This document shows, piece after piece, positions 19,037 through 41,958 of a stretch of DNA of 43,383 nt; positions within the stretch are counted from its first letter, which is position 1; each line of letters opens with the position of its first letter. The stretch covers positions 1 to 43,383 of the IMG/VR virus record IMGVR_UViG_3300030620_000002; one strand, 5' to 3'. The notes below the pieces were generated by a model. It was given only the letters and a program-made list of their open reading frames with translations, made no database searches and was not told where the DNA came from. The position numbers and the translations under genes are program-made. The DNA comes from a virus.

Positions 19037-19087
19037 CTCGGCCTCCAGTGTTCCCGCGGCCCCTGCGGCCGCGTCCGACACTCAGAG

Positions 19088-19117
19088 ATTAGTACCCCCG
19101 GAGGGGCAGATTGTCAA
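19088..19117 (-). promoter_or_regulatory. Sigma70-like promoter TTGACA-18-ACTAAT for the 19036->18068 operon
   Basis: The reverse complement reads ccccTTGACAatctgcccctccgggggtACTAATctc. The -35 box overlaps the stop codon of the upstream lipoprotein gene. Confidence 0.45.
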
Positions 19118-19877: not shown

Positions 19878-21068
19878 ATGAAGGACAGGATCACCCTCAA
19901 GGCGCTCGCGGAGCTGCAGCTCGGCCAGACGGTCTGGGACACGGAGCAGCTCGGGTTCGGGGCCCGCCGGCGGAAGGGCGGGGTCTTCTTCGTCTTCAAG
20001 GTGCAGCGGCGGGGGAAGGCGGACTGGGTCCCCCTCGGGCGCCTCGGCGACGTCACCCTCGACGACGCCCGCAAGGCGGCCGCCAGGGAGCGAGGCATCG
20101 TCGCCCTGGGCGGCCGCCCCGGCGCCTGGCGCCGCACCCCCACCCTGAAGCACTTCGGGGCCCGCTACCTGCGGGAGGCGGCGTCGGCCACGAAGGCCCT
20201 GTCCTACGCCTGGACCGAGCGCGCGCTGCGTCTCCACCTCTACCCCGCGCTCGGGCACCTCCGGCTCGACGAGATCACGGCGCATGACGTGACGCGGCTC
20301 AAGGATCGCTACGCGACGCGGAAGGGGGCGTTCAACAACGCCCGCCGGGCCCTGAGCATGCTCTACGCGAAGGCGATCGAGTGGCGCGAGCTCTCCGCGG
20401 ACTGGCCGTCGCCGTGCCGCTACGTCGCCTCCTATGCGATGCCGAAGCACGAGCGCTACCTGTCGCAGAAGGAGCTCGCGGGCCTCGGCGCCGCGCTGGC
20501 CACCCACGCGCAGCAGGGCCCGGCCGCGGCCCTGGTGGTGGCGGCCGTCCGGCTGATGATCTTCACCGGTGCTCGTCGTGACGAGGTCCGCTTCCTTCGC
20601 TGGGGCGAGGTGGGCCCCACCGCCCTCCACCTGAGTGACACCGCCGCGGGCCCGCGATCGGGCCTGAAGACGGGCGCGAAGCCGATCAGCCTGAACCCGC
20701 CTGCGGCCCAGCTCCTGGCCGCGCTCGAGCGCCGCGGCGACGAGGACCTGGTCTTCGAGTCACCGCTCCGGCCGGGTCACCCCGTGGCGCTGCACCAGGC
20801 CTGGGACCAGATCCGGCGCGCGGCCGGCCTGAAGGATGTCCGCCTGCACGACCTCCGCCACTCGTTCGCCTCGGTCGCCGTGGCAACGGGCCACTCGCTC
20901 TACGTCACCGGCGCCCTCCTCGGCCACCGCAACTCCAGGACCACGGAGCGGTACGCCCACCTGAGCGCGGACCCGCTCGCGGCCGCCAGCGCCGCGGTCG
21001 CCCGCCGGATCCAGACCGCCCTCGAGGCAGGCGAGGGGGAGGCGAAGGCGAAGGGCGGGGCGAGCTAG
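19878..21068 (+). CDS. int: Tyrosine recombinase/integrase, P4-like (DUF4102-type N-terminus)
   Basis: AGGAGAAGG RBS. The N-terminus reads LKALAELQLGQTVWDTEQLGFGARRRKGGVFFVFKVQRRGK. The catalytic motifs are TGARRDEV, HDLRHSFAS, LGHRNSRTTERYAHL. Confidence 0.93.
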   Translation: MKDRITLKALAELQLGQTVWDTEQLGFGARRRKGGVFFVFKVQRRGKADWVPLGRLGDVTLDDARKAAARERGIVALGGRPGAWRRTPTLKHFGARYLREAASATKALSYAWTERALRLHLYPALGHLRLDEITAHDVTRLKDRYATRKGAFNNARRALSMLYAKAIEWRELSADWPSPCRYVASYAMPKHERYLSQKELAGLGAALATHAQQGPAAALVVAAVRLMIFTGARRDEVRFLRWGEVGPTALHLSDTAAGPRSGLKTGAKPISLNPPAAQLLAALERRGDEDLVFESPLRPGHPVALHQAWDQIRRAAGLKDVRLHDLRHSFASVAVATGHSLYVTGALLGHRNSRTTERYAHLSADPLAAASAAVARRIQTALEAGEGEAKAKGGAS

Positions 21069-21073
21069 TGTAG

Positions 21074-21793
21074 CTAGGAAGGCTCGCGGTCGAGGACCTT
21101 GTTCCGCTCGATGTCGCCGCGGCTCTGGCCCCGGACCGCAGGCGCCACGTCGCCAGACGACGTCGCCCACGTGCCGCAGTCGTCGTCGGTGTAGAAGCCC
21201 ACGTCACCCGCCTGGATCTCAACCAGTTGCGCGCCCCCGTCTCCGACGAAATCGTTCGCGATGATCGCTCGCAGCGTGCCGTCGAAGTTGGCGAGGCGCT
21301 CCCAGTAGCAGGCCGCGCCGGCGTCCACCCGATAGAGGCCCGGGGCGACTTGCGCGCCGACGAGCCAGCGGCCAGGGGGGATCCCGACCTGCATCCCCTC
21401 GCGCGGCTCCGCGAACCAGTCGCCGCAGTCGCCGTCGCCCTCGAAGGCGAAATCGGAGGCGAGAATGTCGACGATCTCCTGTGGGGAGTCGAAGCCCACG
21501 AAGGTGTTCGCCAGCACGTCGTCCAGGGTGCCACCGGCGCCACTTTGGCGCTCCCAGTAGCAGCCACTCTCCGGATCCGCGAAGTAGCGTCCCGCGTCGA
21601 TGTCGGCCCCGACGAGGTGCTGGCCGGGGCTGAAGGCGGCGAGTTCCGGCGTGGGGGTCGGAGCCGGCGTGGGGGCGGGCGTCGCCTGGCTGGCCCCTGT
21701 CGGCGAGTCGCTGCCGCCGCCACAGCCCACCACCGCGCAGCATGTCCCAGCAGCGATCAGCCACCAGATCTTGCGACCGTCGTTCATTCTCAT
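21074..21793 (-). CDS. Secreted lipoprotein with two tandem ~75-aa repeats
   Basis: Lipobox AVVGCGG, a Pro/Thr linker, then two repeats that each carry G.Y....CYWER...GTL..I.AN.FVG....CG.W. GAGGAGG RBS. Confidence 0.75.
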   Translation of the reverse strand: MRMNDGRKIWWLIAAGTCCAVVGCGGGSDSPTGASQATPAPTPAPTPTPELAAFSPGQHLVGADIDAGRYFADPESGCYWERQSGAGGTLDDVLANTFVGFDSPQEIVDILASDFAFEGDGDCGDWFAEPREGMQVGIPPGRWLVGAQVAPGLYRVDAGAACYWERLANFDGTLRAIIANDFVGDGGAQLVEIQAGDVGFYTDDDCGTWATSSGDVAPAVRGQSRGDIERNKVLDREPS

Positions 21794-21815
21794 GGCTTCA
21801 GCCTCCTCATCCTGA

Positions 21816-21880
21816 ACGGACCTCTACCAACGGGAACGCACGAGGGTCGCGGTTCGAACGGCGGGCCCGGGCGGGACCTG
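21816..21880 (-). repeat. Conserved upstream element, copy A (5' of the lipoprotein gene)
   Basis: acggacctct...aacgcacgagggtcgcggttcgaacggcgggcccgggcgggacctg is about 80% identical to 22874-22947. Confidence 0.5.
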
Positions 21881-21892
21881 GGGCGAGGCGAG

Positions 21893-22435
21893 CTAGGGGC
21901 TACAGGGCTCGCGCGTGTTCACGTCCTGGAACAGCGTGCGCGTGACCTGGATCGCACTCACCCAACCCACAGACTGATCCAGGGGGCTCCGCACCTGGTA
22001 CTGGTCGCCCTGTTTGGCGAGGATCATGGCGCGCGAGCCGGGGCGCATCTCGCCGACCTTCCGCTGCTTCTCTGGGCTGTTCCACAGGTTGATCTTGTGG
22101 TTCTGTGCGACCCACAGCGGCGGTCGATCCAACTCGCGAGCCCACCACTCGAGGGACTTGAGCTCCACGTGCTCGGCGCAGGGGTTCGGGGTCGGCGTCG
22201 GTGCGGCGGCCGCGGTCGTTGGCGGTGTCACGGGCGTCGGCCTGGCCGCGGGCGCCGGCGGCGGTGCCGACGGCCAGGTGAGGGCGCCGACGAGATACAA
22301 GCCCACGGCGAGGACCAGTAGTGCCGCGCAGCCGCCGGCGACACAGCCGGTCCTCTGCCGCAGCTTCCTCCCACAGTTGGGGCAGCTAGCGGCGCTCTTC
22401 GAGAGGTCCTTGCCGCAATCCGGACACTTGGTCAT
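21893..22435 (-). CDS. Zinc-ribbon / transmembrane / SH3-like domain protein (180 aa)
   Basis: CPDCGKDLSKSAASCPNCG, then a TM segment (GCAALLVLAVGLYLVGAL), a Pro/Thr/Ala linker and an SH3b-like C-terminus (GSRAMILAKQGDQYQVRSPLDQSVGWVSAIQV). Confidence 0.7.
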   Translation of the reverse strand: MTKCPDCGKDLSKSAASCPNCGRKLRQRTGCVAGGCAALLVLAVGLYLVGALTWPSAPPPAPAARPTPVTPPTTAAAAPTPTPNPCAEHVELKSLEWWARELDRPPLWVAQNHKINLWNSPEKQRKVGEMRPGSRAMILAKQGDQYQVRSPLDQSVGWVSAIQVTRTLFQDVNTREPCSP

Positions 22436-22502
22436 GGGAGACCCACCCCCTCAGGTGGCCGGCACCCGCTCGCCCGCCGCGGAGGGCGCGGCCTCAGTGT
22501 GT

Positions 22503-22814
22503 TCACCGTTCGCACAGCTTCAGCGCGCGCTCGATCAGCGGGCCGATGTTCTTTCGGGTTCCTGGTATCGAAGGGTTGTGTGCCCACACGGGCTCGATCC
22601 CGGGATAGCCGTGGTGTTTCGCCAGCCCGTTGAGCGCGTACCGCCGGCCGTCGACTAGCGCCACCGCGACCGGGATGCCTTTGCTCTGGGGATCGCACTC
22701 CAGCCGCGCCGAAGGGCTCGTGAGGGGCCACGCGGCGCCCAGTCCGGAGCTTGTCACGAGGTGCCCTTCTACATCCTCGGCGGGTGGACTCATGAACGAG
22801 TCGATCCCCTGCAA
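22503..22814 (-). CDS. Hypothetical protein (103 aa as called; true N-terminus probably further upstream)
   Basis: The TTG-start ORF has ordinary composition (VALVDGRRYALNGLAKHHGYPGIEPVW). The in-frame upstream codons encode a hydrophobic segment but lack an ATG, GTG or TTG start. Confidence 0.5.
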   Translation of the reverse strand: MQGIDSFMSPPAEDVEGHLVTSSGLGAAWPLTSPSARLECDPQSKGIPVAVALVDGRRYALNGLAKHHGYPGIEPVWAHNPSIPGTRKNIGPLIERALKLCER

Positions 22815-22873
22815 GGCCGCCCAGAAGAGAGGGCCGCCCCAAAACCAGAGTCCGACACCCAGAGCGAGGCTTC

Positions 22874-22947
22874 ACGGGACCTCTCCTCTGGAGGGTAACG
22901 CACGAGGGGCGCGATCCGAACAGAACGCCGGCCCCGGGAGGAACCTG
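22874..22947 (-). repeat. Conserved upstream element, copy B
   Basis: acgggacctct...aacgcacgaggggcgcgatccgaacagaacgccggccccgggaggaacctg is a diverged copy of 21816-21880. Confidence 0.5.
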
Positions 22948-22950
22948 CGG

Positions 22951-22977
22951 GCACCCTGACGCCATACGTCAGGGTGC
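22951..22977. terminator. Perfect 11-bp stem hairpin gcaccctgacg-ccata-cgtcagggtgc (possible terminator or operator)
   Basis: Read directly. It lies 39 nt downstream of the minus-strand RHH gene stop. There is no U-tract on either strand. Confidence 0.4.
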
Positions 22978-23015
22978 GGCCGACAGTCTCCCGTGCCCGT
23001 CCGCCCTCCCGGGAC

Positions 23016-23198
23016 CTAACCGCCGCGCTTCCTGAGGTACTCGTCGATTGCTTCAGTCACGACCGCTGCCCGCTTTCGTCGGAGATCGTGCTCGACCTCG
23101 TAGTGGCCGAGGCGCTTCGCGATCGCTGCCGGGATGCGGACGTTGAGCTGCTGCCGCGGGGCCGCCCCGGCTTCCCGGGGTTTCTTTGGTCGAGCCAT
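23016..23198 (-). CDS. Ribbon-helix-helix (CopG/Arc-like) DNA-binding protein, candidate repressor
   Basis: MARPKKPREAGAAPRQQLNVRIPAAIAKRLGHYEVEHDLRRKRAAVVTEAIDEYLRK follows the RHH pattern. It is divergent from the early operon. Confidence 0.7.
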   Translation of the reverse strand: MARPKKPREAGAAPRQQLNVRIPAAIAKRLGHYEVEHDLRRKRAAVVTEAIDEYLRKRGG

Positions 23199-23205
23199 CG
23201 AAGCA

Positions 23206-23234
23206 AGCCTAGCAGCGGCCCATGGTGATAGCAA
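23206..23234 (-). promoter_or_regulatory. Promoter TTGCTA-17-TAGGCT for the RHH gene, positioned for a leaderless mRNA
   Basis: The reverse complement reads TTGCTAtcaccatgggccgctgcTAGGCTtgcttcgATG, with 7 nt between the -10 box and the ATG. Confidence 0.45.
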
Positions 23235-23245
23235 GGGGTTTATCC

Positions 23246-23274
23246 TTGACGGTCGCCTGATAGCAAGCTAGCAT
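23246..23274 (+). promoter_or_regulatory. Early promoter TTGACG-17-TAGCAT, positioned for a leaderless or near-leaderless mRNA
   Basis: TTGACGgtcgcctgatagcaagcTAGCATctagggaaATG, with 8 nt between the -10 box and the ATG at 23283. Confidence 0.55.
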
Positions 23275-23282
23275 CTAGGGAA

Positions 23283-23840
23283 ATGGCTGCGGAAGGCATC
23301 GAGATCCAGAGGGTCGTGAACGCACTGCTGCGCTGGCGCGGCAACGTGAAGGCGGCCGCGGACGAGCTGGGGATCCGGCGGAAGAGCCTCTATGAGCGCA
23401 TCCAGCGCGCCGGCATCGACCTCCAGGCGATCCGCCATGCGTCCCCCTCCGTGAGCGAGTTCCGGGGCATGCCCCGTATGCCCCCCGTGCCCCGGGACAT
23501 GTCCCGTGAGGGGGTGACCCGTAGTGTCCCGAAATCTGCTAGTGCCCCGTACCAAAGCACGCCTCAGGGGCCTACCGTGACGGGCATGCAGCAGGCCACC
23601 GCGGAACCACCCTTCGCACCGTCGCACAGCAAGCCGCGACTCCCGCGCGTCCTGCCCCGCGACCAGGAGCGGCTCCGCGCCGCCAAGATCGAGATCATCG
23701 CCCGCTTCCGCATCGAGACCGACGAGCAGGCGATCCACGACCAGTTCATGGCGGAGGCGTTCGACGGCTGGCTCGAGGACAAGCTGGCGGTCGAGGGTGC
23801 CCGTCCGGCGGAGCGGCCGCAGCGGAAGAAGGCCCCGTGA
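23283..23840 (+). CDS. Fis-type HTH (HTH_8) regulator, first gene of the early operon (185 aa)
   Basis: VNALLRWRGNVKAAADELGIRRKSLYERIQRAGIDL is a Fis/NtrC-type HTH. Confidence 0.7.
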   Translation: MAAEGIEIQRVVNALLRWRGNVKAAADELGIRRKSLYERIQRAGIDLQAIRHASPSVSEFRGMPRMPPVPRDMSREGVTRSVPKSASAPYQSTPQGPTVTGMQQATAEPPFAPSHSKPRLPRVLPRDQERLRAAKIEIIARFRIETDEQAIHDQFMAEAFDGWLEDKLAVEGARPAERPQRKKAP

Positions 23841-24220
23841 CGAGCCTCCAGGCGCAGCGGGCCGAGGACAGGACCGGCGACCCGACGGGCGCGCCGCGCC
23901 GCCCCGCCGAGCTCCGGGCCCTGGCGCACGATCATCTCGTCGAGGCGCGCCGGTACGAGATGGAGGCGCAGGAGCTGTTCGCCGAAGCCGCGCGGCTGGA
24001 GAGTAGCCAGGCGCTCGAGGCTCGGCTCTCGCCCGACGATGCGGCGGCGTTCCTGCGCGTGAAGCGGGGGACGCTCAACGCCTGGCGCCGGAACGGGCGT
24101 GGGCCGCGCTACGTCATGGTGGGGACGAAGATCACCTACCTCCGGGCCGACCTGGAGAGCTGGCTCCAGAGCCGCCGGATCGGCAGCACGGCCGAGCGGC
24201 GCGACCTGGGGGCGCAGTGA
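23837..24220 (+). CDS. Excisionase/MerR-type HTH (HTH_17) protein
   Basis: LSPDDAAAFLRVKRGTLNAWRRNGRGPRYVMVGTKITYLRADLESWL matches the Xis/AlpA-type pattern. GTGA coupling to the upstream gene. Confidence 0.65.
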   Translation: MTSLQAQRAEDRTGDPTGAPRRPAELRALAHDHLVEARRYEMEAQELFAEAARLESSQALEARLSPDDAAAFLRVKRGTLNAWRRNGRGPRYVMVGTKITYLRADLESWLQSRRIGSTAERRDLGAQ

Positions 24221-32831: not shown

Positions 32832-33829
32832 CGGAGCCCCACCACCAGCTGCGCGACGTCCTCCGCCGCGGCCGCGCCCGCCTGCCGGCGGAGCTGCAGC
32901 CGGCTGGGGCGCTCCTCGTCCTGCGCGAGCTGACCGAGTGGCGCGACCTGGACCCGTCAAGCCGGCAGCTCGAGGAGGCCACGGGCCAGCACCGGAGCCG
33001 GATCCGCCGCTACCTCGACCAGGCCGTGGCCTGCGGGCTCCTCGTCGTCCTCCAGGAGGCATCGGCGGGCGGTCGAGGGCGCCGCGGCCGCGGCCGCCGC
33101 TACGGACTCGGTCCGCTCGCTCTCCAGGCCCTGCCAGAAAGCGGGGACGCCAGGTCCCCTGTTTCTGGCGCTGCCCCGCCTGAAAGTGGGGACGCCACGT
33201 CCCCTGTTTCCGAGAAAGCGGGGACCAAAGTGGGGACCAAAGTGGGGACCAAAGTGGGGACGCCACGTCCCCCTCACCTACACCTACACCGTACGGATAC
33301 ACCCCCCCCTACCCCCCCTCGGGACGAGGGGGGGCCAGTCGAGCTCCGAATCGCAGCCAGGCGACGACGGCCACGGCACCGCGACGAGCGGGATGCCCTC
33401 GAGGCGTACGGTCAGGAGCTCGGGCTCACCCTCGACACCGAGCTGCGGGACCGGATCCGCGACGCGCTGCGCGACGGCTGGGCGGTCGATCGGATCCGGT
33501 CGAGCCTCGAGCGCCGCGCCGGGCGGCCGCGGTCGCCGCCGGCGCCGGAGCGGCCGCTACCGACGCGCGAGGCGCTGCGGCTGTGGGAGGGCGCCGTCTG
33601 CTGGCTCGAGTCCCGAGTCCCGCGCCGGTCGTGGCTCACCTGGCTCCGAGCCGGCACCTGGGGCTACCGCCTCGACGGCGAGCGCCTGGTCGTCGGCGTC
33701 GCCACCCCCGCACACCAGCGCTGGCTCGCCGGCCACGTCGAGTGGCGGCCGCTCTACCTCGAGGCGCTCGCCGCCGGCGGCCACGCGGGGCTCGAGGTCC
33801 TCTTCGAGACGGGACTCCCAGGAGGTTGA
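32828..33829 (+). CDS. Replication initiator candidate: N-terminal wHTH, iteron-encoding linker, DnaA-N-like C-terminus
   Basis: ATGA coupling. The N-terminus has LEEATGQHRSRIRRYLDQAVACGLL. The C-terminus WEGAVCWLESRVPRRSWLTWLRAGTWGYRLDGERLVVGVATPAHQRWLAGHVEWRPLYLEAL resembles the DnaA domain I pattern. Confidence 0.6.
   Translation: MTEPHHQLRDVLRRGRARLPAELQPAGALLVLRELTEWRDLDPSSRQLEEATGQHRSRIRRYLDQAVACGLLVVLQEASAGGRGRRGRGRRYGLGPLALQALPESGDARSPVSGAAPPESGDATSPVSEKAGTKVGTKVGTKVGTPRPPHLHLHRTDTPPPTPPRDEGGPVELRIAARRRRPRHRDERDALEAYGQELGLTLDTELRDRIRDALRDGWAVDRIRSSLERRAGRPRSPPAPERPLPTREALRLWEGAVCWLESRVPRRSWLTWLRAGTWGYRLDGERLVVGVATPAHQRWLAGHVEWRPLYLEALAAGGHAGLEVLFETGLPGG
33135..33277. repeat. Candidate origin of replication: six AAAG(C/T)GGGGAC iterons plus three GGGGACGCCA(C/G)GTCCCC palindromes
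   Basis: Iterons start at 33138, 33183, 33215, 33227, 33239 and 33251; the last four are in exact 12-bp phase. Inverted GTCCCC partners are at 33154, 33199 and 33267. Confidence 0.6.
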
Positions 33830-33831
33830 CG

Positions 33832-35538
33832 ATGCTGAAGGTGGGCGCCGGGTTCCAGCTCGCGATCGAGCACGTCGAGGACGTCGTCGCGATCATCGGC
33901 CGCCGCGGCCGCGGGAAGACGTCGACCGCGGCCGTGCTCGTCGAGGAGCTCCACCGCGCGCGGCACCGGTTCTGCGTCGCGGATCCAGTCGGGGTCTGGC
34001 ACGGGCTCAAGTCCTCGAGGGACGGGAAGTCCCCCGGCCTCCCGGCGATCGTGATGGGCGGCGATCACGGGGACGTCCCCCTCGAGGCGACGGCGGGGCG
34101 GGTGATCGCCGACTTCGTAGCGACCTCGGACAGCTCCGTCGTCCTCGACTTCCTGCACTTCCGCAAGGCCCACATGAGCCGCTTCATGACCGACTTCCTC
34201 GAGGAGCTCTACACCAAGAGCCGGCGGGCGCTCCACCTGGTGCTTGACGAGGCCGACAAGTTCATCCCGCAGCGCGTGGACGGCAGCAACGCGCAGCTGG
34301 TCGGCGCCGCCGAGGACGTCGTCAAGATGGGCCGGGCCCGGGGGTTGCTGCCCATCCTCATCACGCAGCGGCCAGCCTCGCTCAACAAGAACGCGCTCTC
34401 GCAGGCGGGCCTGCTGATCGCGCATGGCCTGACCTCGCCCCACGACCGCAAGGCCGTCGACCTCTGGGTGAGGGAGAACGCCACCGAGGAGCAGCGCAAG
34501 GCCTTCCACGCCTCGCTCGCCGGGCTCGACCGGGGCGTCGCGTGGTTCTGGCAGCCGGAGGCCGAGATCTTCCGCCAGGTGTCCGTGCGGGAGCGCGCCA
34601 CGTTCGACTCGTCGTCGACGCCGAAGGCCGGGGGCCATCGCGCCGCGCCGAAGGTCGTCGCGAAGGTCGACCTGGAGCAGCTCGAGAAGCGGATCCGGTC
34701 GACCATCGAGGAGCGGAAGGCGAACGACCCGAAGGAGCTGCGGCGCAGGATCGGCGAGCTCGAGCGCCAACTGGCGAAGCCGCCCACGCTGGCGCCGGCG
34801 ACGGTGGAGCGGGTCGAGGTCCCCATCCTGGAGGCGCCCACGGTGAAGCGCCTCGAGGCCGCGCTCGCGAAGGTGGACCGGCAGGCCGAGCGCCTCACCG
34901 CCGACGTCCAGCGCCTGGTCGACCTACAGGCTGACGTCAAGGCCCGCCAGGCGGAGATCCGGTCAGCCCTGATCACGCGCTCGGAGCGCGCACGACCGGC
35001 CGCGGCGCCGCCGCGCGTCTCGACGACGCCAGCGCCGCCTCGCCCTGCCCCGCGGCCGGCGCAGGGATCCGTCGGGGGCGGCCTGCAGCGGATCCTCGTC
35101 GCCCTCGCGCAGCGGCCGCAGGGACTGACGATCAAGCAGGTCGCGCTACGCGCGGGGCTGTCCAGCCGGAGCGGCACCTTCTCGACGTACGTCAGCCGCT
35201 GCCGCCAGCAGGGCTGGATCGCGGGCGGCAGCAAGGAGGTCCTCCGGATCACGGATGAGGGCCTCGAGGCGCAGGGGCCCTTCGAGCCCCTGCCCACGGG
35301 TGCCGGGCTGCTCGCCTACTGGTCGAGCCAACTCGGGGGTGGCGCTGCCAGGCTCCTCGAGGCGGTCGCTGCCGCCTACCCTGCCGAGCTGAGCAACGAC
35401 GAGGCCGCGGCCGCCGCGGGCCTCTCTGGGCGCAGCGGCACCTTCTCGACGTACGTGAGCCGCCTCCGCGGCCTGCAGCTGATCGACGGCGCGCGCGGGA
35501 GCGGCCGCCTGCGCGCGTCCGATGAGCTCTTCGAGTGA
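33832..35538 (+). CDS. HerA/FtsK-like P-loop ATPase (DUF87-type) with two C-terminal wHTH-like repeats (568 aa)
   Basis: Walker A is IIGRRGRGKTS and Walker B is HLVLDEADKF. LPILITQRPASLNKNALSQAGLLIAHGLTS also fits the family. A coiled-coil lies in the middle. The repeat GLS.RSGTFSTYVSR.R occurs twice at the C-terminus. Confidence 0.75.
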   Translation: MLKVGAGFQLAIEHVEDVVAIIGRRGRGKTSTAAVLVEELHRARHRFCVADPVGVWHGLKSSRDGKSPGLPAIVMGGDHGDVPLEATAGRVIADFVATSDSSVVLDFLHFRKAHMSRFMTDFLEELYTKSRRALHLVLDEADKFIPQRVDGSNAQLVGAAEDVVKMGRARGLLPILITQRPASLNKNALSQAGLLIAHGLTSPHDRKAVDLWVRENATEEQRKAFHASLAGLDRGVAWFWQPEAEIFRQVSVRERATFDSSSTPKAGGHRAAPKVVAKVDLEQLEKRIRSTIEERKANDPKELRRRIGELERQLAKPPTLAPATVERVEVPILEAPTVKRLEAALAKVDRQAERLTADVQRLVDLQADVKARQAEIRSALITRSERARPAAAPPRVSTTPAPPRPAPRPAQGSVGGGLQRILVALAQRPQGLTIKQVALRAGLSSRSGTFSTYVSRCRQQGWIAGGSKEVLRITDEGLEAQGPFEPLPTGAGLLAYWSSQLGGGAARLLEAVAAAYPAELSNDEAAAAAGLSGRSGTFSTYVSRLRGLQLIDGARGSGRLRASDELFE

Positions 35539-35927
35539 GCGAGCGCCGTACGATCACGATCCCGGGTCTGCCGGTCGGAAAGCCGCGGCAGACCCGGCGC
35601 GACCGCTGGGCCAGGCGGCCGGCGGTGCTCCGATACCGGGCCTGGGCCGACACCGCCCGAGCCGCGGTGCTCGCCGCCCTCGGCGCCCACGCCCTCGACC
35701 AGGTCCCGCTCGAGGTCCACGTCCTCGCCTGGTTCCCCCTGCCCCAACGCCGCCGCCCGGGCGTCAGGCCTGGCTGGCCTTATCGGCAGAAGCCCGACGC
35801 CGACAACGTCATCAAGGCGGTCTGTGACGCCCTCTGGGCGCGGGACGAGCTCATCGCGGGATCCTCGTGCTGGTGCTCCTGGGACGACGGCCGCGGACCT
35901 CGACTGGAGGTCTGGTGGAGGGACTGA
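35535..35927 (+). CDS. rusA: RusA-family Holliday junction resolvase
   Basis: TIPGLPVGKPRQ...RQKPDADNVIKAVCDALW matches the RusA catalytic motif (KPDxDNxxKxxxDAL). Confidence 0.85.
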   Translation: MSERRTITIPGLPVGKPRQTRRDRWARRPAVLRYRAWADTARAAVLAALGAHALDQVPLEVHVLAWFPLPQRRRPGVRPGWPYRQKPDADNVIKAVCDALWARDELIAGSSCWCSWDDGRGPRLEVWWRD

Positions 35928-36121
35928 CGCCGGAGCAGCAGGAGATCCTCGAGCGCCTGCCGGCGGCGGTCGTCGAGCTGCTCGTCGAGGAGTTCCGTGC
36001 CCTGGGCCCGTCCAGGTCGGGCGAGATCCGCCTGGTCCTCGCAGTCGTGCGAGGCGCCGTCAGGGCGGAGCGCTCGTACATCGAGCCGCCGCGCCGGTGG
36101 GCCCGCCACCCGCGCGACTGA
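35915..36121 (+). CDS. Hypothetical small protein (68 aa)
   Basis: GTG 35915 lies in the frame of track ORF 35867..36121. It is the last gene before a 136-bp intergenic gap. Confidence 0.4.
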   Translation: MEGLTPEQQEILERLPAAVVELLVEEFRALGPSRSGEIRLVLAVVRGAVRAERSYIEPPRRWARHPRD

Positions 36122-36139
36122 CCCGGCCGCCGGAATGGC

Positions 36140-36168
36140 TTGACCGCGCGGCTGTCAGCCCGTACCCT
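36140..36168 (+). promoter_or_regulatory. Candidate promoter TTGACC-17-TACCCT upstream of the endolysin gene
   Basis: cTTGACCgcgcggctgtcagcccgTACCCTctg lies in the only sizeable intergenic gap of the + strand block. Confidence 0.4.
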
Positions 36169-36257
36169 CTGACCTGAGCCGCGTGGCTCCGGCGAGGTAG
36201 CCCGCGACGCAAGCGGGCCCGCCGGGGGGGATTGCCCGGTGCCGAGGGCCCTCCGAC

Positions 36258-36899
36258 ATGCCTCTCACGAGGCGAGTCGGAGGATCCTTGCCGGCAGACG
36301 CAGACCGGGCCACCGAGCCGCCCCTCTCGACATTCGACCGGGCCTTCACCCTCATCGTCCTCGCCGAGGGCGGCGCCGCCTTCAGCGACCACCCCCACGA
36401 CCCCGGCGGGCCCACGAAGTGGGGCGTCTCCTGGCGCGCGGTCCGCCTGCGCGATGCGGACCGCGACGGCCGCTTCGACTTCGACCTCGACTTCGACGGC
36501 GACGTTGATGTCGAGGACATCAGGCTGATCGAGCGCCACCACGCCGAGCAGCTCTTCGCGGAGGACTACTGGGCCCCCGCCGGCTGCGAGCGGTGGCCAG
36601 CGCCGGTGGCGATCGCCGTCGCCGACGCCGCGTACAACCAGGGCCCGCGGACCGCCGTCGCGATGCTCCAGCGCGCGGTCGGCCCCGGAGCGGGGCGGGA
36701 CGACGGGATCCCCGGACCCCGCACCCGCGCCGCCGTCGAGGCGCTCGAGGCCGCCGGGCGCGTCCGCCAGCTCCTCGCCGACTTCGCGACCCACCGAGCG
36801 GACCGCTACCGGCAGCACCCGCGCGTCGACACCTTCTTTCGCGGCTGGATCGCGCGGCTCATCGAGCTCGACAGGGCTCTGGCTGGAGGTTGCCAGTGA
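36258..36899 (+). CDS. Endolysin, glycoside hydrolase family 108 plus PG_binding_3-like C-terminus
   Basis: LAEGGAAFSDHPHDPGGPTKWGVS matches the GH108 motif (EGGYxxxxxDPGGxTxxGI). ADAAYNQGPRTAVAMLQRAV...DDGIPGPRTRAAV...FFRGWIARL fits the peptidoglycan-binding part. Confidence 0.85.
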   Translation: MPLTRRVGGSLPADADRATEPPLSTFDRAFTLIVLAEGGAAFSDHPHDPGGPTKWGVSWRAVRLRDADRDGRFDFDLDFDGDVDVEDIRLIERHHAEQLFAEDYWAPAGCERWPAPVAIAVADAAYNQGPRTAVAMLQRAVGPGAGRDDGIPGPRTRAAVEALEAAGRVRQLLADFATHRADRYRQHPRVDTFFRGWIARLIELDRALAGGCQ

Positions 36900-37981
36900 A
36901 GCGACGACGCTGGACGGGTCTGTGCGTAGTGCTCGTGGCGATGGTGCCCGGGCTGGTGATGGCGCACGGCTGCGCGAGCTTCCCGATCCAGCTCGAGCGC
37001 GAGGACTGGCCCGTGCGGGACGACGGGACCCCGTACGCGAGCTGTCAGCTCGGTGCCAACGTGCCGGAGGACATGCCGCGGGTGTCGTGCGACTGCGCGA
37101 CCGAGGGCCCGGTGGTCGACTTCGTCGGGACCTGGGAGATCCGCGAGTGTCCCGCGCCGCCACCTCCACCGCCTCCACCGCCGGAGCCCGACCCCGAGCC
37201 CGATCCTGACCCGACGCCTCCTCCGCCCCCTCCGCCGGCAGGCACGTGTCCGCCCATCACGGCCTTCCGTTGCTTCGACGGCGACTCAACGGCGCTCGCC
37301 GGCGTCGAGGTCTCGGCTGCCGAGCGCCGCGTCATCGCCTCAAGGCCGGGCTACCTGATCGAGGTGCACGAGCGAGGGCAGCACCTCCGGGCCAAGATCC
37401 GGACCCCGGACCCCGGCGCCGAGCCCGACCTGCGCCGCTGGACGGAGGACGTAGCCGCCGAGCTGCGTCGCGCCGGCTACTGCGCCTACAGCGGCGATCC
37501 AGGCGGCAGCTCGCCCGACGAGATCCTGATCGTCGTGGACGACCCGGAGGGCCTCGTCGACGCCGAGCAATGGGACCTCGCGAAGTGCGGCGCGGTCGAC
37601 CCCGACAAGCGCTATTGCGTTGGGAGCGATCTCGAGCACCAGCCGTTCGACTGCGTGCTCCGGGACTCGGGTCCCGACCTGGGATCCGGTGGCCCGGGCG
37701 ACCCCGGGCCCGAAGACGAGCCGGAGGGCTACTGCACCGTCAGGGGGCACGGCAACGCGGACGGGCCGCTGCGGTTCCCGACCATGCTCGCCGCGTGCCA
37801 GTTCTCGCTCGATTGGGCGAGCGACGCCGGGCACACGACGCGCCACACGAGCGGCGGCGAGACGTGGTTCTACGACGAGGGCCGGGGCTGGTATCGCCGC
37901 GCGACGTGCGAGCGGTACGACTCGCCGGGTGGGCGTCGGCTCAGCGGGCCCGAGTGGTTCGGCGTCGAGTGCTTCCCGTGA
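36896..37981 (+). CDS. Secreted Cys-rich lipoprotein candidate with a poly-Pro/Asp-Pro linker (361 aa)
   Basis: GTGA coupling to the endolysin gene. Signal/lipobox-like VKRRRWTGLCVVLVAMVPGLVMAHGCAS. Linker PAPPPPPPPPPEPDPEPDPDPTPPPPPPPAG. Many Cys residues. Confidence 0.6.
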   Translation: MKRRRWTGLCVVLVAMVPGLVMAHGCASFPIQLEREDWPVRDDGTPYASCQLGANVPEDMPRVSCDCATEGPVVDFVGTWEIRECPAPPPPPPPPPEPDPEPDPDPTPPPPPPPAGTCPPITAFRCFDGDSTALAGVEVSAAERRVIASRPGYLIEVHERGQHLRAKIRTPDPGAEPDLRRWTEDVAAELRRAGYCAYSGDPGGSSPDEILIVVDDPEGLVDAEQWDLAKCGAVDPDKRYCVGSDLEHQPFDCVLRDSGPDLGSGGPGDPGPEDEPEGYCTVRGHGNADGPLRFPTMLAACQFSLDWASDAGHTTRHTSGGETWFYDEGRGWYRRATCERYDSPGGRRLSGPEWFGVECFP

Positions 37982-38124
37982 GCAGCGGGCTCGCCGTGTG
38001 CTCGGGGTGCGGCCGAGAGGTGCACCAGGATGGCGAACGCCCACCAGACTGGAGGTATCCGCGCGGCTGGCGCCACTGCAAGCGCCGGTGGACGCCGCCG
38101 AAGCCGCGGCCGGGCAGCCGAGCG

Positions 38125-38457
38125 CTACTCCTGCTCGCGCTCGGCCTTGCGGCGCCGCCGGGACTCGGCGCGGAGCCGCCCCTGCTCCTTCCGCTCCTCG
38201 GGCGTGAGGCTCTGCCAGTACGCGCGGCTCACGTCCCCGGCGGAGGCCCGGGCCTTCGAGGGGCCTCGGACACGCCCGCCGAGGGACCCGAGAGCGCGGG
38301 CAGCCTCGGTCGTGTTCGCGGCTTGGATCTCGGCCCGGGCCGCGTCCGCGAGCGCCAAGAGTGCCTCCCGCTGCGATGGGTGGGTCTCCTCGCGGCCGTC
38401 GGCGTAGATGACGACCCGGGTGCGCTCGATGCGGCCCACCCCGGGGATCGAGACCAT
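38125..38457 (-). CDS. Orphan protein 3 of the minus-strand cassette (110 aa, basic C-terminal tail)
   Basis: The ATG abuts the upstream TAG. High GC3. ...SRAYWQSLTPEERKEQGRLRAESRRRRKAEREQE. Confidence 0.6.
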   Translation of the reverse strand: MVSIPGVGRIERTRVVIYADGREETHPSQREALLALADAARAEIQAANTTEAARALGSLGGRVRGPSKARASAGDVSRAYWQSLTPEERKEQGRLRAESRRRRKAEREQE

Positions 38458-38703
38458 CTACAGCTCGAACCGGTGGCGGTGGCCGCCACCCGCGGGGTAG
38501 GGGTAGGCGGCGAAGCCCTCGCCGCGCCGCACCATCACGATCGTCGGCACGGGGAGGCCCCGTCCCGCAGCCCACTCACGCACGCCCTCCGGGCTCCTGC
38601 CTGGCGTCGGGCTGTCGACGTGGATTCGGAGCCCGTGCTCCTGGGCGGCCAGCATCACGGACTGTCCGGGCCGACACCAGATCGTATTCGCGTTCGTGCT
38701 CAT
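38458..38703 (-). CDS. Orphan protein 2 of the minus-strand cassette (81 aa; alternative start 38745)
   Basis: ATG 38703 is preceded by a GAGGAGAG RBS. MSTNANTIWCRPGQSVMLAAQEHGLRIHVDSP... Confidence 0.55.
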   Translation of the reverse strand: MSTNANTIWCRPGQSVMLAAQEHGLRIHVDSPTPGRSPEGVREWAAGRGLPVPTIVMVRRGEGFAAYPYPAGGGHRHRFEL

Positions 38704-38787
38704 CTCACTCTCCTCGGGCCGCCCATCGGCCCAGGTCTGATCCATCTCGTCGGGGGCGGGACCGAAGTCCTCCCCCGGCGGCAGGGA

Positions 38788-39051
38788 TCAGAGAGTGGGG
38801 ATCCGGTGCAGCCGATAGCCGGCCGCTTCCGCTTGCGTGATCATCTCGTCCGCGAGCGGCAGGTCCTCGTCGTGCGTCATGGTGAGTCCGCCATACACCT
38901 CGGCGGATCCGTACGCGATGCCGTCGACCACCACGACCGGGAGCCCGTAGCTGCTCGCGGCGTGCTCGGTCGTCAACACCCCGTACCGCGCCTCGGCGCG
39001 ATTCCCCGGCTCCGTGTACGTCATCACCCGTATGCTCATCGTGTCCTCCAT
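38788..39051 (-). CDS. Orphan protein 1 of the minus-strand cassette (87 aa; alternative start 39039)
   Basis: The ATG lies 6 nt downstream of a TATATT -10 box, so the mRNA would be leaderless. GC3 is about 88% by direct count. MEDTMSIRVMTYTEPGNRAEARYGVLTTEHAASSYGLPVVVVDG... Confidence 0.65.
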   Translation of the reverse strand: MEDTMSIRVMTYTEPGNRAEARYGVLTTEHAASSYGLPVVVVDGIAYGSAEVYGGLTMTHDEDLPLADEMITQAEAAGYRLHRIPTL

Positions 39052-39057
39052 ACCCCC

Positions 39058-39086
39058 AATATACCGCCAGCGCTGGCGGGTGTCAA
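39058..39086 (-). promoter_or_regulatory. Near-consensus sigma70 promoter TTGACA-17-TATATT driving the minus-strand cassette
   Basis: The reverse complement reads TTGACAcccgccagcgctggcggTATATTgggggtATG. The spacer is almost entirely the palindromic operator. Confidence 0.65.
39064..39079. promoter_or_regulatory. Operator candidate O1: perfect 16-bp palindrome CCGCCAGCGCTGGCGG
   Basis: Read directly. It lies in the -35/-10 spacer of the cassette promoter. Confidence 0.6.
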
Positions 39087-39117
39087 GGTGGATCGACAGC
39101 GCGGGGCCACCCTTCTT

Positions 39118-39133
39118 CCGCTAGCGCTGGCGG
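39118..39133. promoter_or_regulatory. Operator candidate O2: CCGCTAGCGCTGGCGG (one mismatch from O1)
   Basis: Centre-to-centre spacing from O1 is 54 bp. A + strand TAGACT -10-like hexamer (39134-39139) follows immediately. Confidence 0.55.
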
Positions 39134-39178
39134 TAGACTCTGAGCCGACTCGCTCCGGACCGCCCACGCAGAATCAAC

Positions 39179-39236
39179 GACTTACGGGCGCCCCGCCGGC
39201 ACCGCACCCCTCCCCCGGGTGCGATTCGCGTAAGTC
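39179..39236 (+). other. Nested hairpin structure in the + strand leader (possible regulatory RNA structure)
   Basis: The outer stem pairs gacttacg (39179-39186) with cgtaagtc (39229-39236). The inner stem pairs cgcaccc (39203-39209) with gggtgcg (39217-39223), with a 7-nt C-rich loop. Confidence 0.4.
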
Positions 39237-39252
39237 CAGTGAATCCGCCAAC

Positions 39253-39882
39253 TTGCAGAGCCTCCAGGAGGCGCCCGAAGGGGCGCACCCTACCCCGCAC
39301 CCCCGGGGAGCCACGATCGGCGCTCCTGGAGCCTCTGAGGCGGTCCCGCTCGTCGAGGGCTGGGCCGGGCGCTACCAGACGCACTCCCGGCAGCCTGATG
39401 GCTCCTCAGCGGGCTCTGCGGGCTGGCAGGGCCTCGCGACCCTCCGCACCCCCGCCTGGCGCGGGCTGCGGCTCTGGGGCGCGGCGGAGACGGCACCACA
39501 GAGCGGCGCCCTCGTCGCCGACGCCCTCGAGACGTGGCAGGGGGCGGAGCTGGTGGGCGGGCTCCAGCTCGACGGCTGGCGGGTCGGCCCGTGGCAGGTG
39601 AGCCCCTCCGTGGCGGCCGGCGGCGTGGTCGCGCTCGGGAGCGACCGTGATCGGGTGCGGGTGACGCCGACGCTGCTCGCGGCGGGGGCTCGACTCGAGG
39701 GCTTCCCCGTGCGGCTCTACGTCGGCCTCGGGAGGCATGGAGCGACGAGCGACGGGCTCGTGCTCATCGCGGACGCGCTGGTGCGGCTCCCGAGCACTGA
39801 CGGGCGCCTTGCGTTGCACTCGCGCTGGATCAGCGGGGAGGCGGCGTCGTGGCGCTACGGGATCGTGGGGAGGTGGTGGTGA
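39253..39882 (+). CDS. Hypothetical protein (start uncertain: TTG 39253 or GTG 39553)
   Basis: GC3 is about 80-90% in this frame from roughly 39253 and about 67% upstream of it. TGATG coupling to the next gene. No ATG in the frame. Confidence 0.4.
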   Translation: MQSLQEAPEGAHPTPHPRGATIGAPGASEAVPLVEGWAGRYQTHSRQPDGSSAGSAGWQGLATLRTPAWRGLRLWGAAETAPQSGALVADALETWQGAELVGGLQLDGWRVGPWQVSPSVAAGGVVALGSDRDRVRVTPTLLAAGARLEGFPVRLYVGLGRHGATSDGLVLIADALVRLPSTDGRLALHSRWISGEAASWRYGIVGRWW

Positions 39883-40250
39883 TGGACGCCCTACTCATCC
39901 TCGCAGCCTGCGGGCTCGCCCTCATCGTCATCGACTGGATCGCGGCGAGCCGGCGGGCCTCCGAGGACCCCTACTGGATCCGCGTCCGCAAGCGAGCCCG
40001 GGAGCTGGGCTCGGATGGGTGCACGGGTGGCGGCGCCCTCTTCCGCGACTGCTGCCTCGAGCACGATATCCACGAGCGCACCCACCGCACGCCCGACGGA
40101 CACCCGATCACCGAATACGAATCAGACCGGCGTTTCCTCCACTGCATGCAGCGGCGCTCCTTCGTCGGCTGGTGGACGCCGATAGGGTGGAGCCGGTACG
40201 CCGCCGTCCGCATCTGGCGGCGCTGGCGCGCGTGGCGGGCGGGGAGCTGA
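39882..40250 (+). CDS. Membrane-anchored protein with a PLA2-like CC..HD motif (122 aa)
   Basis: TM segment MDALLILAACGLALIVIDWIAA, then DGCTGGGALFRDCCLEHDIHERTH. Confidence 0.55.
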   Translation: MDALLILAACGLALIVIDWIAASRRASEDPYWIRVRKRARELGSDGCTGGGALFRDCCLEHDIHERTHRTPDGHPITEYESDRRFLHCMQRRSFVGWWTPIGWSRYAAVRIWRRWRAWRAGS

Positions 40251-40254
40251 GGGT

Positions 40255-40725
40255 GTGGACGAGATCGGACAGGGGCTCAAAGCCATCGCCGCCCTCGACC
40301 CCCTTGGGATCGCGCTCGTCATCATCCTCGTCCTGGCAATCGGTGCCGTTTGCGCTCTTGCAATCGCTTGGAAGCGTGGCTACTTCCGCTCGCACACAGA
40401 CCTCGCGCGGCGCTCCGCGGAACTCGCGCGGGACATCGCGACCGTGCAGCGTGACGTGCATCAGCTCCAGTCGGACTGGCGCACCCTGGAGGGGAGGCTG
40501 GACGTGTTCGCGATAGATCAGGCGCGGTGGCAGCCGACGCTCGAGGAGGGGCGTCGCGTAGCGGATGACATCCAGCGCACGCTACGACGCCTGACGTCCG
40601 AGGTGGCCCGCCTCGGCGGAGTCACTTCGGCGCTGCTGACGATGGTCCAGCCGTCGACGCCGCACGGCGGGAATCAGGCGTTGGGTGTACTGGAGGAGAC
40701 CCCGGACCCGGAGCGTAGGAAGTGA
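40255..40725 (+). CDS. N-terminally anchored coiled-coil protein (i-spanin-like or holin-associated candidate, 156 aa)
   Basis: GTG with a GGGGAG RBS. TM segment LGIALVIILVLAIGAVCALAIAW, then a heptad-like region (DIATVQRDVHQLQSDWRTLEGRLD). Confidence 0.55.
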   Translation: MDEIGQGLKAIAALDPLGIALVIILVLAIGAVCALAIAWKRGYFRSHTDLARRSAELARDIATVQRDVHQLQSDWRTLEGRLDVFAIDQARWQPTLEEGRRVADDIQRTLRRLTSEVARLGGVTSALLTMVQPSTPHGGNQALGVLEETPDPERRK

Positions 40726-40937
40726 TCAGGACGCACACCTACGCGGTGCTCGAGGTGAGCCCCGCCGCGTACGAGGAGATCCGCTCCCTGCTCGAGGCCG
40801 CGGGCTACGGCCACGTCCGCGTCAACCGAGGCGGGCAGGTCCTGCTCGACATGCACGGCATCGCCCTGGCCCCTGACAGCTCGACCCGCGGGGGGGGCGT
40901 GGAGCCCCCCGGGGGCGGACCTCCGGGTGGGCCATGA
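40722..40937 (+). CDS. Hypothetical small protein (71 aa)
   Basis: GTGA coupling. MIRTHTYAVLEVSPAAYEEIRSLLEAAGYGHVRVNRGGQVLLDMHGIAL. Confidence 0.45.
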   Translation: MIRTHTYAVLEVSPAAYEEIRSLLEAAGYGHVRVNRGGQVLLDMHGIALAPDSSTRGGGVEPPGGGPPGGP

Positions 40938-41389
40938 GGACGCCCCCAGGGCCCCGCTCTGCGCTGAACGTCGGCGATCGGAGCGGCGACAACGAGGTTC
41001 TCGGCTGGACCCGGCGAGAGCTAACGATCCCGCGGGCGATCGTCGATGCCTCGGAGCTGGCGGCCGCCCTCGTTCTCGACCTGGTAGAGGCCAGGGTGCC
41101 GCAAGTCGGGACAGCACTCGACGAGGTCGCGGTCCGCCTCGGTCGTGCCGCCTCACGAGCGTTGCAGCGGCTGGTGGCCGATGAGCGGCGAGCCGCGCGG
41201 CGCTGGGGCAAGACGAAGCGGAGGCAGGGGTCCCGACGTCGCGGCCGAGCGGCCCCGGCGGGGGCACCCCCCCCGGTGGCCTGGGTCCTCCCACGGGCCC
41301 GGGCCGAACGGGTTGCCCCCCCCGCGGATATTTTTCAGTCTCCGGCCCCGCCCGGGGGGCATTGGGCATTCAGGTGGGCGGGGCAGTAG
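40934..41389 (+). CDS. Hypothetical protein (151 aa); the 3' third overlaps the candidate cos region and may not be coding
   Basis: ATGA coupling. The first ~95 aa have ordinary composition; the tail is Arg/Pro-rich. Confidence 0.4.
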   Translation: MRTPPGPRSALNVGDRSGDNEVLGWTRRELTIPRAIVDASELAAALVLDLVEARVPQVGTALDEVAVRLGRAASRALQRLVADERRAARRWGKTKRRQGSRRRGRAAPAGAPPPVAWVLPRARAERVAPPADIFQSPAPPGGHWAFRWAGQ

Positions 41390-41400
41390 GCCGCCGGCCG
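41260..41400. other. Candidate cos/packaging-recognition region upstream of the Nu1-like gene
   Basis: Two C8 tracts (41267-41274 and 41316-41323) share a similar context. An isolated AT patch ggatatttttcagtctcc lies at 41326-41343, and a G6 tract at 41354-41359. The position corresponds to lambda cos. Confidence 0.3.
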
Positions 41401-41958
41401 GCCCCGGCGGCGTCTCCCTCCAGCTCGAGGCCGCGGCTCACCCGCGTGCAGTTGGCCGAGGCCCTCGGGTGCAACGTCCGGACGCTGGCGAAGTGGCTGG
41501 AGGAGGGGATGCCGGTCGTCCGCCGCGGCCGCGGCGGGCGCGCATCCCTCTACGACGAGGTCGAGGTGCGCGCCTGGCTCGAGGCGCGCGAAGAGGCGGC
41601 GCGCGGCGAGGAAGGCCCTCTGGTCCTCGAGCACGAGCGCGCCCTCAAGGAGCACTGGCTTGCGCTCGTCAACAAGCAGACGTACCTCACGCGTGAGCGC
41701 CAGCTGATCCCCGCGGCCGAGGTAGAGGTGGCCCTATCGCGTGAGCGCGACGCGGTGAGGGCGAAGGTCCTCTCGATCTACACGACGAGAGCGGACCGGC
41801 TGCACCGGATCGCCACTCTCGAGGGCGTCGCCGGAGTCGAGGAGGAACTCCGACAGATCGGGCACGAGGTCCTGCGCGAGCTCGCGGAGCCACCCGAGGA
41901 CGAGAAGCCCGGGGAGCCGCGCCGGCGCCGGCGCAGCAAACGCAAGGGTGACGGGTGA
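41362..41958 (+). CDS. terS: Terminase small subunit, lambda Nu1-like (wHTH N-terminus); the true start may be GTG 41446
   Basis: LTRVQLAEALGCNVRTLAKWLEEGMPVVRRGRGGRASLYDEVEVRAWL parallels lambda Nu1 (KKQLADIFGASIRTIQNWQEQGMPVLRGGGKGNEVLYDSAAVIKWY). GTGA coupling to terL. Confidence 0.8.
   Translation: MGIQVGGAVGRRPAPAASPSSSRPRLTRVQLAEALGCNVRTLAKWLEEGMPVVRRGRGGRASLYDEVEVRAWLEAREEAARGEEGPLVLEHERALKEHWLALVNKQTYLTRERQLIPAAEVEVALSRERDAVRAKVLSIYTTRADRLHRIATLEGVAGVEEELRQIGHEVLRELAEPPEDEKPGEPRRRRRSKRKGDG

Follow-up and report, generated by a model that had tools for sequence, protein, structure and literature searches.

The 43,383-nucleotide viral record IMGVR_UViG_3300030620_000002 of IMG/VR was analysed over its whole length and is referred to here as the window. 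At positions 38125–39051 it carries a cassette of three tightly packed open reading frames on the minus strand, termed genes A, B and C. The cassette is preceded by its own sigma-70-type promoter, whose spacer is filled by a palindrome. The features of the locus are listed below in the direction of transcription; L013 and L008 are two related sequences.

39118–39133, unstranded: O2, a copy of the O1 palindrome with one mismatch, CCGCTAGCGCTGGCGG; putative operator, upstream of O1
39058–39086, minus strand: sigma-70-type promoter TTGACA-17-TATATT, 11/12 match (−35 at 39086–39081, −10 at 39063–39058)
39064–39079, unstranded: O1, perfect 16-bp palindrome CCGCCAGCGCTGGCGG filling the promoter spacer; putative operator
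38788–39051, minus strand: gene A, called as an open reading frame of 87 amino acids (aa); 83 aa from the ATG at 39039, which is led by a Shine-Dalgarno (SD) sequence
38736–38792, minus strand: hairpin in the intergenic RNA, with a stem of ~24 bp and a UUCG loop, spanning the A stop codon (−46.7 kcal/mol, z = −2.7)
38458–38745, minus strand: gene B, 95 aa, most likely 81 aa from the ATG at 38703 behind GAGGAGAG-N4
38701–38720, minus strand: 20-nt translation-initiation block GGCCCGAGGAGAGTGAGATG ahead of gene B, a single occurrence in the window
38125–38457, minus strand: gene C, 110 aa
38060–38124, minus strand: cassette 3′ trailer, conserved in L013 and L008 as well

Genes and control elements of the cassette

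The stop codon of B (TAG, 38458–38460) immediately abuts the ATG of C (38455–38457), which gives the sequence TAGATG. Independent gene callers annotate A, B and C as 83, 81 and 110 aa. In the three minus-strand frames the GC content at the third codon position (GC3) is 0.88–0.94, and GC1 exceeds GC2. An overlapping plus-strand open reading frame of 878 aa displays the inverted pattern, with GC1 at 0.88–0.94 and GC3 at 0.65–0.76, and is therefore regarded as the shadow. Homologues at the protein level exist for A and C. Codon-position GC and these homologues together rule out A, B and C as antisense shadows. An earlier reading of the DNA, made from its letters alone (the sequence-only reading), had placed three minus-strand genes at these positions with B and C abutting, and had taken the high GC3 of the first of them as a sign of real coding sequence; both statements are borne out.

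The promoter is the sole sigma-70-like match in positions 37800–40000, where shuffled sequence gives an expectation of 0.0. It is also the better of two matches of at least 10/12 in the entire 43.4-kb window, and as such exceptional in a genome of 72% GC. Transcription is expected to start near position 39051. The sequence-only reading had described a near-consensus promoter with a palindromic operator in its spacer. This was found as described, the palindrome being perfect over 16 bp, and the claim can be extended by O2, a second copy that had not been noted. O1 and O2 are 54 bp apart, about five helical turns. At a tolerance of one mismatch, the palindrome has no further copy in the window. 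Two other modes of control were considered and dismissed. Activation of the MerR type does not fit, since the spacer has the optimal 17 bp and not 19–20 bp, and inspection by eye near O2 showed no GG-N10-GC match that would indicate a sigma-54 late promoter.

Gene A has its first ATG where transcription is expected to start, 6 nt past the −10 hexamer, which points to leaderless translation of the 87-aa product. A second in-frame ATG is found 12 nt further on, behind GGAGGA, and gives the 83-aa form; an SD-led ATG of this kind, in frame and 12 nt downstream, is present both in the window and in L013 (ATGGAGGnCACGATG). The gap between the −10 hexamer and the ATG is 6–7 nt in the window (39049–39063) and in two other related loci, L007 (1062–1076) and L010 (~1033–1047), and is 9 nt in L013. 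Translation of the first cistron may thus take place on a leaderless mRNA.

No canonical terminator was found after gene C, and the 3′ trailer folds no better than shuffled sequences (z = −0.36). The conserved intergenic blocks were also considered as integron-like attC sites. This was rejected: they are translation-initiation regions and a post-gene hairpin, and not repeated cassette-end sites.

Relatives of the cassette

Four other metagenomic elements (L013, L007, L010 and L011) carry nearly the same promoter and palindrome. In a five-way alignment the block made up of the −35 hexamer, palindrome and −10 hexamer is nearly invariant, and the palindrome core CGCNAGCGCTNGCG is conserved in all four. 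No alignment is possible in the flanks of L010 and L011. Among 185,579 species genomes, none contains the exact promoter pattern.

L013, a 44.9-kb IMG/VR contig, has a cassette in the same slot as the window, between homologues of a lipoprotein gene and of p209, an uncharacterised gene divergent from the cassette. Its promoter is the same, and it has O1 as well as O2, again 54 bp apart. Its cargo consists of an A-like protein whose only common ground with A is the core motif, unrelated proteins of 71 aa and 57 aa, and then C′, which is 80% identical to C. In L007 the promoter and O1 are followed by four unrelated genes (110, 103, 69 and 77 aa) and then by a C homologue. L010 is lower in GC and has unrelated neighbours, with a helicase/methylase gene divergent from its promoter (TTGACAcgCGCAAGCGCTGGCGCTATATT). 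Here unrelated genes of 56, 68 and 74 aa precede a 64-aa protein corresponding to the C-terminal module of C and nothing else (hhalign probability 94%). In L011 the promoter and palindrome directly follow an integrase gene, and the first gene is different again. The L011 sequence ends before the end of the cassette, and the complete cassettes are thus those of the window, L013, L007 and L010.

In all four complete cassettes (4/4) a C-type gene stands last. It is the sole gene common to them, and the upstream genes differ in each. Ten of the alternative cargo proteins were searched against Pfam and none (0/10) has a domain match. The junctions between genes are conserved as well. The block GGCCCGAGGAGAGTGAGATG is identical in the window, L013, L007 and a further locus, L009, in each case ahead of unrelated open reading frames. 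A hairpin stands behind gene 1 in both the window and L013; L007 has one in the corresponding intergenic region, between its genes 3 and 4. These hairpins differ in the sequence of the inner stem. The gene that precedes the C-type gene abuts it in every locus compared.

The slot itself is variable. The closest relative of the window, L012 (IMGVR_UViG_3300037515_000929), is 94% identical to window positions 33831–37982 (4.2 kb), up to the lipoprotein stop codon. Past this point it diverges abruptly into a different plus-strand gene of 75 aa (MVRARFVCQSVRKF...) at its positions 7078–7403, and the contig ends before any cassette further along would come into view. Queries with the small terminase and p209 failed to retrieve its far end. 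Both L012, with a different gene, and L013, with the same slot and different cargo, show the variation of the slot.

L009 (positions 714–968) shows an additional arrangement. An extra 84-aa gene follows its C homologue and ends in the ...KRRKAEREE tail of C, and the 3′ flank of this gene matches that of C (91% over 34 nt, compared with window positions 38122–38155). The shared tail and flank suggest insertion of a gene by recombination within the tail-encoding region.

The idea that the three genes form a conserved trio did not hold up, an outcome that the sequence-only reading had itself named as counting against its proposal. B has no homologue, and A and C occur separately elsewhere; therefore the trio is not a unit, and only the promoter/operator and the C-type gene travel together. 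Judging from these alignments, the unit is a promoter with its operator, exchangeable cargo and a C-type gene, placed in a variable slot. The locus is very probably a portable, operator-controlled operon with exchangeable cargo.

The encoded proteins and the genomic setting

The sequence-only reading recognised no family for any of the three proteins and proposed profile searches with Pfam and PADLOC and structure searches with Foldseek. Scans of A, B and C against Pfam, PHROGs, PADLOC and NCBIfam gave nothing significant, and searches of PDB sequences gave no match. Neither the locus nor any of A, B and C found a match in tblastn and megablast searches of 50,697 INPHARED phage records. Thus the three remain without a recognised family in these databases and among known phages. 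The structure search likewise leaves A without a match.

Protein A is acidic, with an isoelectric point (pI) of 4.7. It belongs to a small family of acidic phage proteins, with 9 relatives found in 5.8 billion protein clusters and six more in IMG/VR, about 15 phage contigs. These share a near-invariant motif, LTTEHAASSYGLPVVV..DG.AYG.AEV, and a C-terminal AAGY. The AlphaFold2 model of A is confident (mean predicted local distance difference test, pLDDT, 84.6; predicted template-modelling score, pTM, 0.73) and displays a beta-rich fold with one helix. Foldseek comparison of this model with PDB and BFVD showed no structural match (best E-value = 0.09, TM-scores of 0.46 or less).

The surroundings of A homologues vary. 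In L001 the homologue is the first gene behind a sigma-70-like sequence, TTGACT-18-TATACT. Two genes downstream of it there is a weak TacA-like match (E-value = 0.0035, below the Pfam cut-off), possibly a ribbon-helix-helix (RHH) protein. In L003 the homologue is inside an early small-gene array, and in L002 it is at the edge of an integrated element, adjoining bacterial genes. L017 (2917–3294) encodes a fusion in which a complete A domain is followed, at the C-terminus, by HTH_3, a helix-turn-helix (HTH) regulator domain of the XRE type (33.7 bits, cut-off 23). Searches for anti-CRISPR proteins make use of just such links, in which a gene is associated with a regulator or fused to one.

Protein B is basic (pI 10.0). 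A homology search returned only the self-match, and no homologue was found anywhere. A weak match to the Lsr2 DNA-binding domain (E-value = 0.06) is regarded as noise.

Protein C is also basic, with a pI of 10.7 overall and 11.3 for its C-terminal module. It has four close relatives. Their N-terminal halves differ, and the C-terminal ~60 residues (positions about 50–110) are almost invariant, with the consensus AARALGSxGGxVxGPSKARASAGDVSRAYWxSLTPEE..G..RAESRRR.KAE, ending in an arginine-rich helix. Structure prediction gives a low-confidence model (pLDDT 68, pTM 0.30) of beta strands, one long helix and a basic helical hairpin, and of these only the C-terminal helical hairpin is confidently modelled. 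A Foldseek search with this model was set aside as meaningless, and a match to SRP_SPB (E-value = 0.11) is regarded as noise.

An exhaustive search of 1.8 billion representative proteins with the C profile yielded only 9 matches, including small stand-alone basic proteins; one of the nine (P0017) is a spurious repetitive protein. The profile has no match in the 185,579 species genomes. In IMG/VR it gave no match, with a peptide pattern that was too strict to recover even L013. Two of the distant C-type matches (P0018 and P0023) are in low-GC small-gene arrays that have no promoter of this kind, and they do not extend the association. At lower significance, the exhaustive search also reached tandem repeats of the form W.SLTPEER.E.G, located C-terminally in one GIY-YIG and one HNH/NUMOD3 homing endonuclease (P0019 and P0021). 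These matches are weak (E-value = 6e-5 to 2e-4). They are a hint, not proof, that the motif has to do with nucleic-acid binding.

The window has a GC content of 72% and appears to be the complete genome of a temperate siphovirus-type phage; GC across the cassette locus is unremarkable. Proteins of the window recur on a 43,880-bp metagenomic contig, ERZ27256807 k141_2444888. The presence of an integrase gene shows the phage to be temperate. There is also an HK97-like capsid-protease fusion, with ~44% identity to the versions in Ralstonia, Pseudomonas and Rhodobacter phages. Scans of the window with Rfam and for tRNA genes found nothing. The integrase and the genes around the cassette are as follows.

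19848–21068: integrase
35535–35927: RusA
36258–36899: GH108 endolysin
36893–37981: lipoprotein, 361 aa
39253–39882, plus strand: p209, an uncharacterised gene of 209 aa divergent from the cassette (GC1/2/3 0.77/0.62/0.90)
39849–40250: membrane protein
40255–40725: Rz-like protein
41362–41958: Nu1-type small terminase

The cassette does lie between the endolysin/lipoprotein pair and the membrane-protein/terminase genes, as had been proposed, but the plus-strand gene p209, which had not been listed, is also in this interval. Because p209 stands between the cassette and the membrane-protein gene, the cassette promoter is in a divergent intergenic region of ~200 bp. p209 has a homologue in L013 (48% identity), no match in Pfam, PHROGs or NCBIfam, and a C-terminus that reads ...RYGIVGRWW. 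It appears to be the first gene of a rightward block that continues with the membrane protein, the Rz-like protein and the small terminase. The lysis genes are split by the cassette, with the endolysin and lipoprotein to its left and the membrane and Rz-like proteins to its right, and the same is seen in L013. The C-terminal part of the lipoprotein differs among relatives.

Conserved elements are found between O2 and p209 and at the p209 5′ end (39172–39236 and 39256–39337). They include AATCAACGACTTA, which by eye fits the integration host factor (IHF) consensus WATCAANNNNTTR. They also include an 8-bp inverted repeat, GACTTACG (39179–39186) and CGTAAGTC (39229–39236), kept in L013 with one mismatch, and a 15-nt inverted repeat (39256–39270 and 39323–39337). 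These elements may represent a late-promoter or 5′ untranslated control region. Among the window genes scanned (33583–41958 and 16257–24220), none was recognised as a late regulator, Q-like or otherwise.

Upstream of RusA, a 651-aa protein (33583–35538, plus strand) has a HerA/FtsK-like ATPase core and weak C-terminal matches to winged helices of the MarR/IclR type. Its closest family in PHROGs is labelled "terminase large subunit", which is judged unlikely at that position. The second sigma-70-like site of the window, TTGACA-18-ACTAAT (10/12; 19088–19117, minus strand), precedes two minus-strand genes of 123 aa (18710–19081) and 114 aa (18369–18713) that adjoin the integrase gene and have no match in Pfam. 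The region 18369–19117 could be a second independently promoted accessory unit.

Interpretation and comparison with known systems

The sequence-only reading saw in the locus a self-contained, independently promoted unit on the opposite strand, with moron-like architecture, and the evidence supports such an accessory unit. Its mode of action can be proposed as follows. Host sigma-70 RNA polymerase would start at the near-consensus promoter, with no need of a phage activator, and transcribe A, B and C leftwards, the first start codon lying at or beside the expected transcription start. A long hairpin would form in the transcript after gene A, and C would be translationally coupled to the gene before it through TAGATG. 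A dimer of C, which is small, very basic in its C-terminal helical hairpin and the one conserved protein of the module, would then bind O1 and the in-phase O2 and turn the promoter off after an initial burst. The payload would be A, acidic and in other phages common in early regions or beside regulators, and B, an orphan specific to its lineage; they would be most likely inhibitors of a host function such as the immune system.

This self-repressed accessory operon of the anti-defence type, with C as candidate autoregulator, is given a probability of roughly 40%. It is favoured because the anatomy fits that of published acr-aca operons, which pair anti-CRISPR genes with a repressor gene, point by point. 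A bolder form of the proposal is rather unlikely. The conserved promoter with its palindrome and the basic C-type protein would then define a new class of portable, self-repressing carrier, with an Aca-like autoregulator that is neither HTH nor RHH, moving orphan counter-defence genes among high-GC temperate phages, and A would be a new family of defence inhibitors.

Several observations weigh against C as a repressor of an anti-defence payload. C matches no HTH or RHH family in Pfam or NCBIfam, and this, together with its poor model, makes DNA binding by C a conjecture. The repeats that resemble its motif also score as DUF3106, and may be a generic helical repeat. A different phage protein, or one of the host, could be what binds the palindrome. 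In searches that covered Pfam, PHROGs, PDB and INPHARED, A, B and C had no match, and no payload protein is linked to a known inhibitor. In L009 and in two distant loci, L022 and L023, the C-type gene is not the last of its array, and the latter two also have no promoter. The promoter instances number only five, all metagenomic, and in one of them, L011, the cassette is incomplete.

The main alternative reading of the same anatomy is a lysogenic-conversion moron, transcribed in the prophage and of benefit to the lysogen through superinfection exclusion or defence, in which the operator only tunes the level of expression. The integrase of a temperate phage, a host-type promoter in opposite orientation inside the late region, a slot that differs among relatives, and the A homologue of L002 beside bacterial genes are all consistent with this. 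However, PADLOC, Pfam and PHROGs gave no match and hence no exclusion- or defence-like protein, and no hydrophobic stretch of the membrane type is visible by eye in the A, B and C translations. With a repressor site filling the core promoter and a conserved candidate regulator downstream, a burst followed by shut-off is a better fit than steady expression. A homologues occur in early small-gene arrays (L003) or right after sigma-70-like promoter matches (L001), and the GC content is not anomalous. A moron of this kind is thus unlikely, without being far-fetched. The earlier suggestion of a defence system as such finds no support, with no PADLOC match and variable cargo. The toxin-antitoxin suggestion fares no better, there being no toxin-like protein either. 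Small, tightly packed genes, abutment of B and C, and a palindrome in the promoter would suit a toxin-antitoxin or abortive-infection module that regulates itself at the palindrome. But there are three genes (four to five in relatives) and no conserved pair, C has a different partner in each locus, and PADLOC and Pfam detected neither a toxin nor an antitoxin family, which leaves such a module highly improbable.

Two further alternatives concern regulation. The cassette could be a switch for the divergent late operon of lysis and packaging genes: one of its products, most likely C, would bind O2 and O1, stop its own promoter, and activate or time p209, the membrane protein, the Rz-like protein and the small terminase. 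The cassette promoter and p209, as first gene of the rightward block, share the ~200-bp intergenic region. O2 lies between them in helical phase with O1, and it is kept in L013 along with the further conserved blocks; the genes scanned offered no other late regulator. Control of lysis timing or late genes, as put forward in the sequence-only reading, retains some plausibility, but it is weakened because in L007, L010 and L011 this promoter and O1 have unrelated genes as neighbours and are without O2 and p209. In addition, the palindrome is found nowhere else in the window, and turnover of cargo would be unusual for an essential timing circuit. This switch is improbable. Much the same low standing is given to an immediate-early host-takeover operon that is controlled in trans, in which a prophage repressor or host regulator would bind the palindromes and C would have another nucleic-acid-binding role. 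The palindrome is very strongly conserved though C-type proteins are only ~40% identical, and C has no recognised DNA-binding fold, both of which would fit. Against this, the window has no other operator copy, the integrase-proximal switch region included, the exact promoter pattern does not occur in the species genomes, and a C-type gene is the one gene common to all complete cassettes.

The self-repressed accessory operon has consequences for the search of similar genes. If C binds the palindrome, it would be a new marker for guilt-by-association searches for anti-defence and host-takeover genes in high-GC environmental phages, where Aca searches based on HTH domains see nothing, and protein A would be nominated as a candidate inhibitor. 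Should C not bind, what is left is a clear case of cargo exchange at conserved promoter and ribosome-binding-site junctions inside an accessory slot of a phage, which is useful but ordinary.

Phage morons, in the definition of Juhala and Hendrix, are extra transcription units between lambdoid phage genes. The cassette resembles them in its independent promoter, in its placement between late genes of a lambdoid-type, HK97-like temperate phage, and in a slot whose content differs among close relatives (L012 and L013). It differs in that no factor-independent terminator of the kind that morons carry was found, in that it has no compositional anomaly, and in its conserved operator and putative regulator, which are not required in classical morons. 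Type II toxin-antitoxin loci also have small abutting genes and a palindromic operator that overlaps the promoter. They require a conserved, recognisable pair, however, and the cassette has none; its candidate regulator is last, not first, and its gene number varies. With GIY-YIG and HNH homing endonucleases of the NUMOD type, C has the helix motif W-x-S-L-T-P-E-E-R-x-E-x-G in common. The endonuclease repeats are tandem and score as DUF3106 rather than NUMOD3, whereas C has a single copy and no nuclease domain.

The closest resemblance is to acr-aca operons of phages and other mobile elements, with Aca1, Aca2 or Aca14 as examples of the regulator; the sequence-only reading had not brought up this better-fitting pattern. 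Their promoters have consensus −35 and −10 elements and resemble strong housekeeping promoters, one inverted repeat is always within the core promoter, sometimes with a second similar one nearby, and the aca repressor gene is downstream of variable acr genes (PMC9410906). Aca proteins are not necessarily HTH proteins and can control neighbouring operons; Aca14 is a ribbon-helix-helix protein (PMC13551039). The cassette likewise has a strong near-consensus promoter (11/12) directly upstream, O1 within the core promoter and O2 nearby. It also has a conserved small 3′ gene after fast-changing small orphans, in the window, L013, L007 and L010. As with acr-aca modules, it occupies different positions in different elements: the lysis region, beside a helicase/methylase gene in L010, and beside an integrase gene in L011. 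The fusion of A to HTH_3 in L017 recalls self-regulating Acr-HTH fusion proteins. The difference lies in the regulator, which carries HTH (Aca1–13) or RHH (Aca14) in acr-aca operons; in C neither is recognisable, and it belongs to no Aca family tested. The likeness is one of architecture, and operator binding, repression and anti-defence activity are putative. The proteins are new, A and C being tiny families known only from metagenomes and B being unique. The locus is a good lead for discovery by guilt by association, one that rests entirely on architecture, and its kind is already known: an accessory operon of the moron or acr-aca type.

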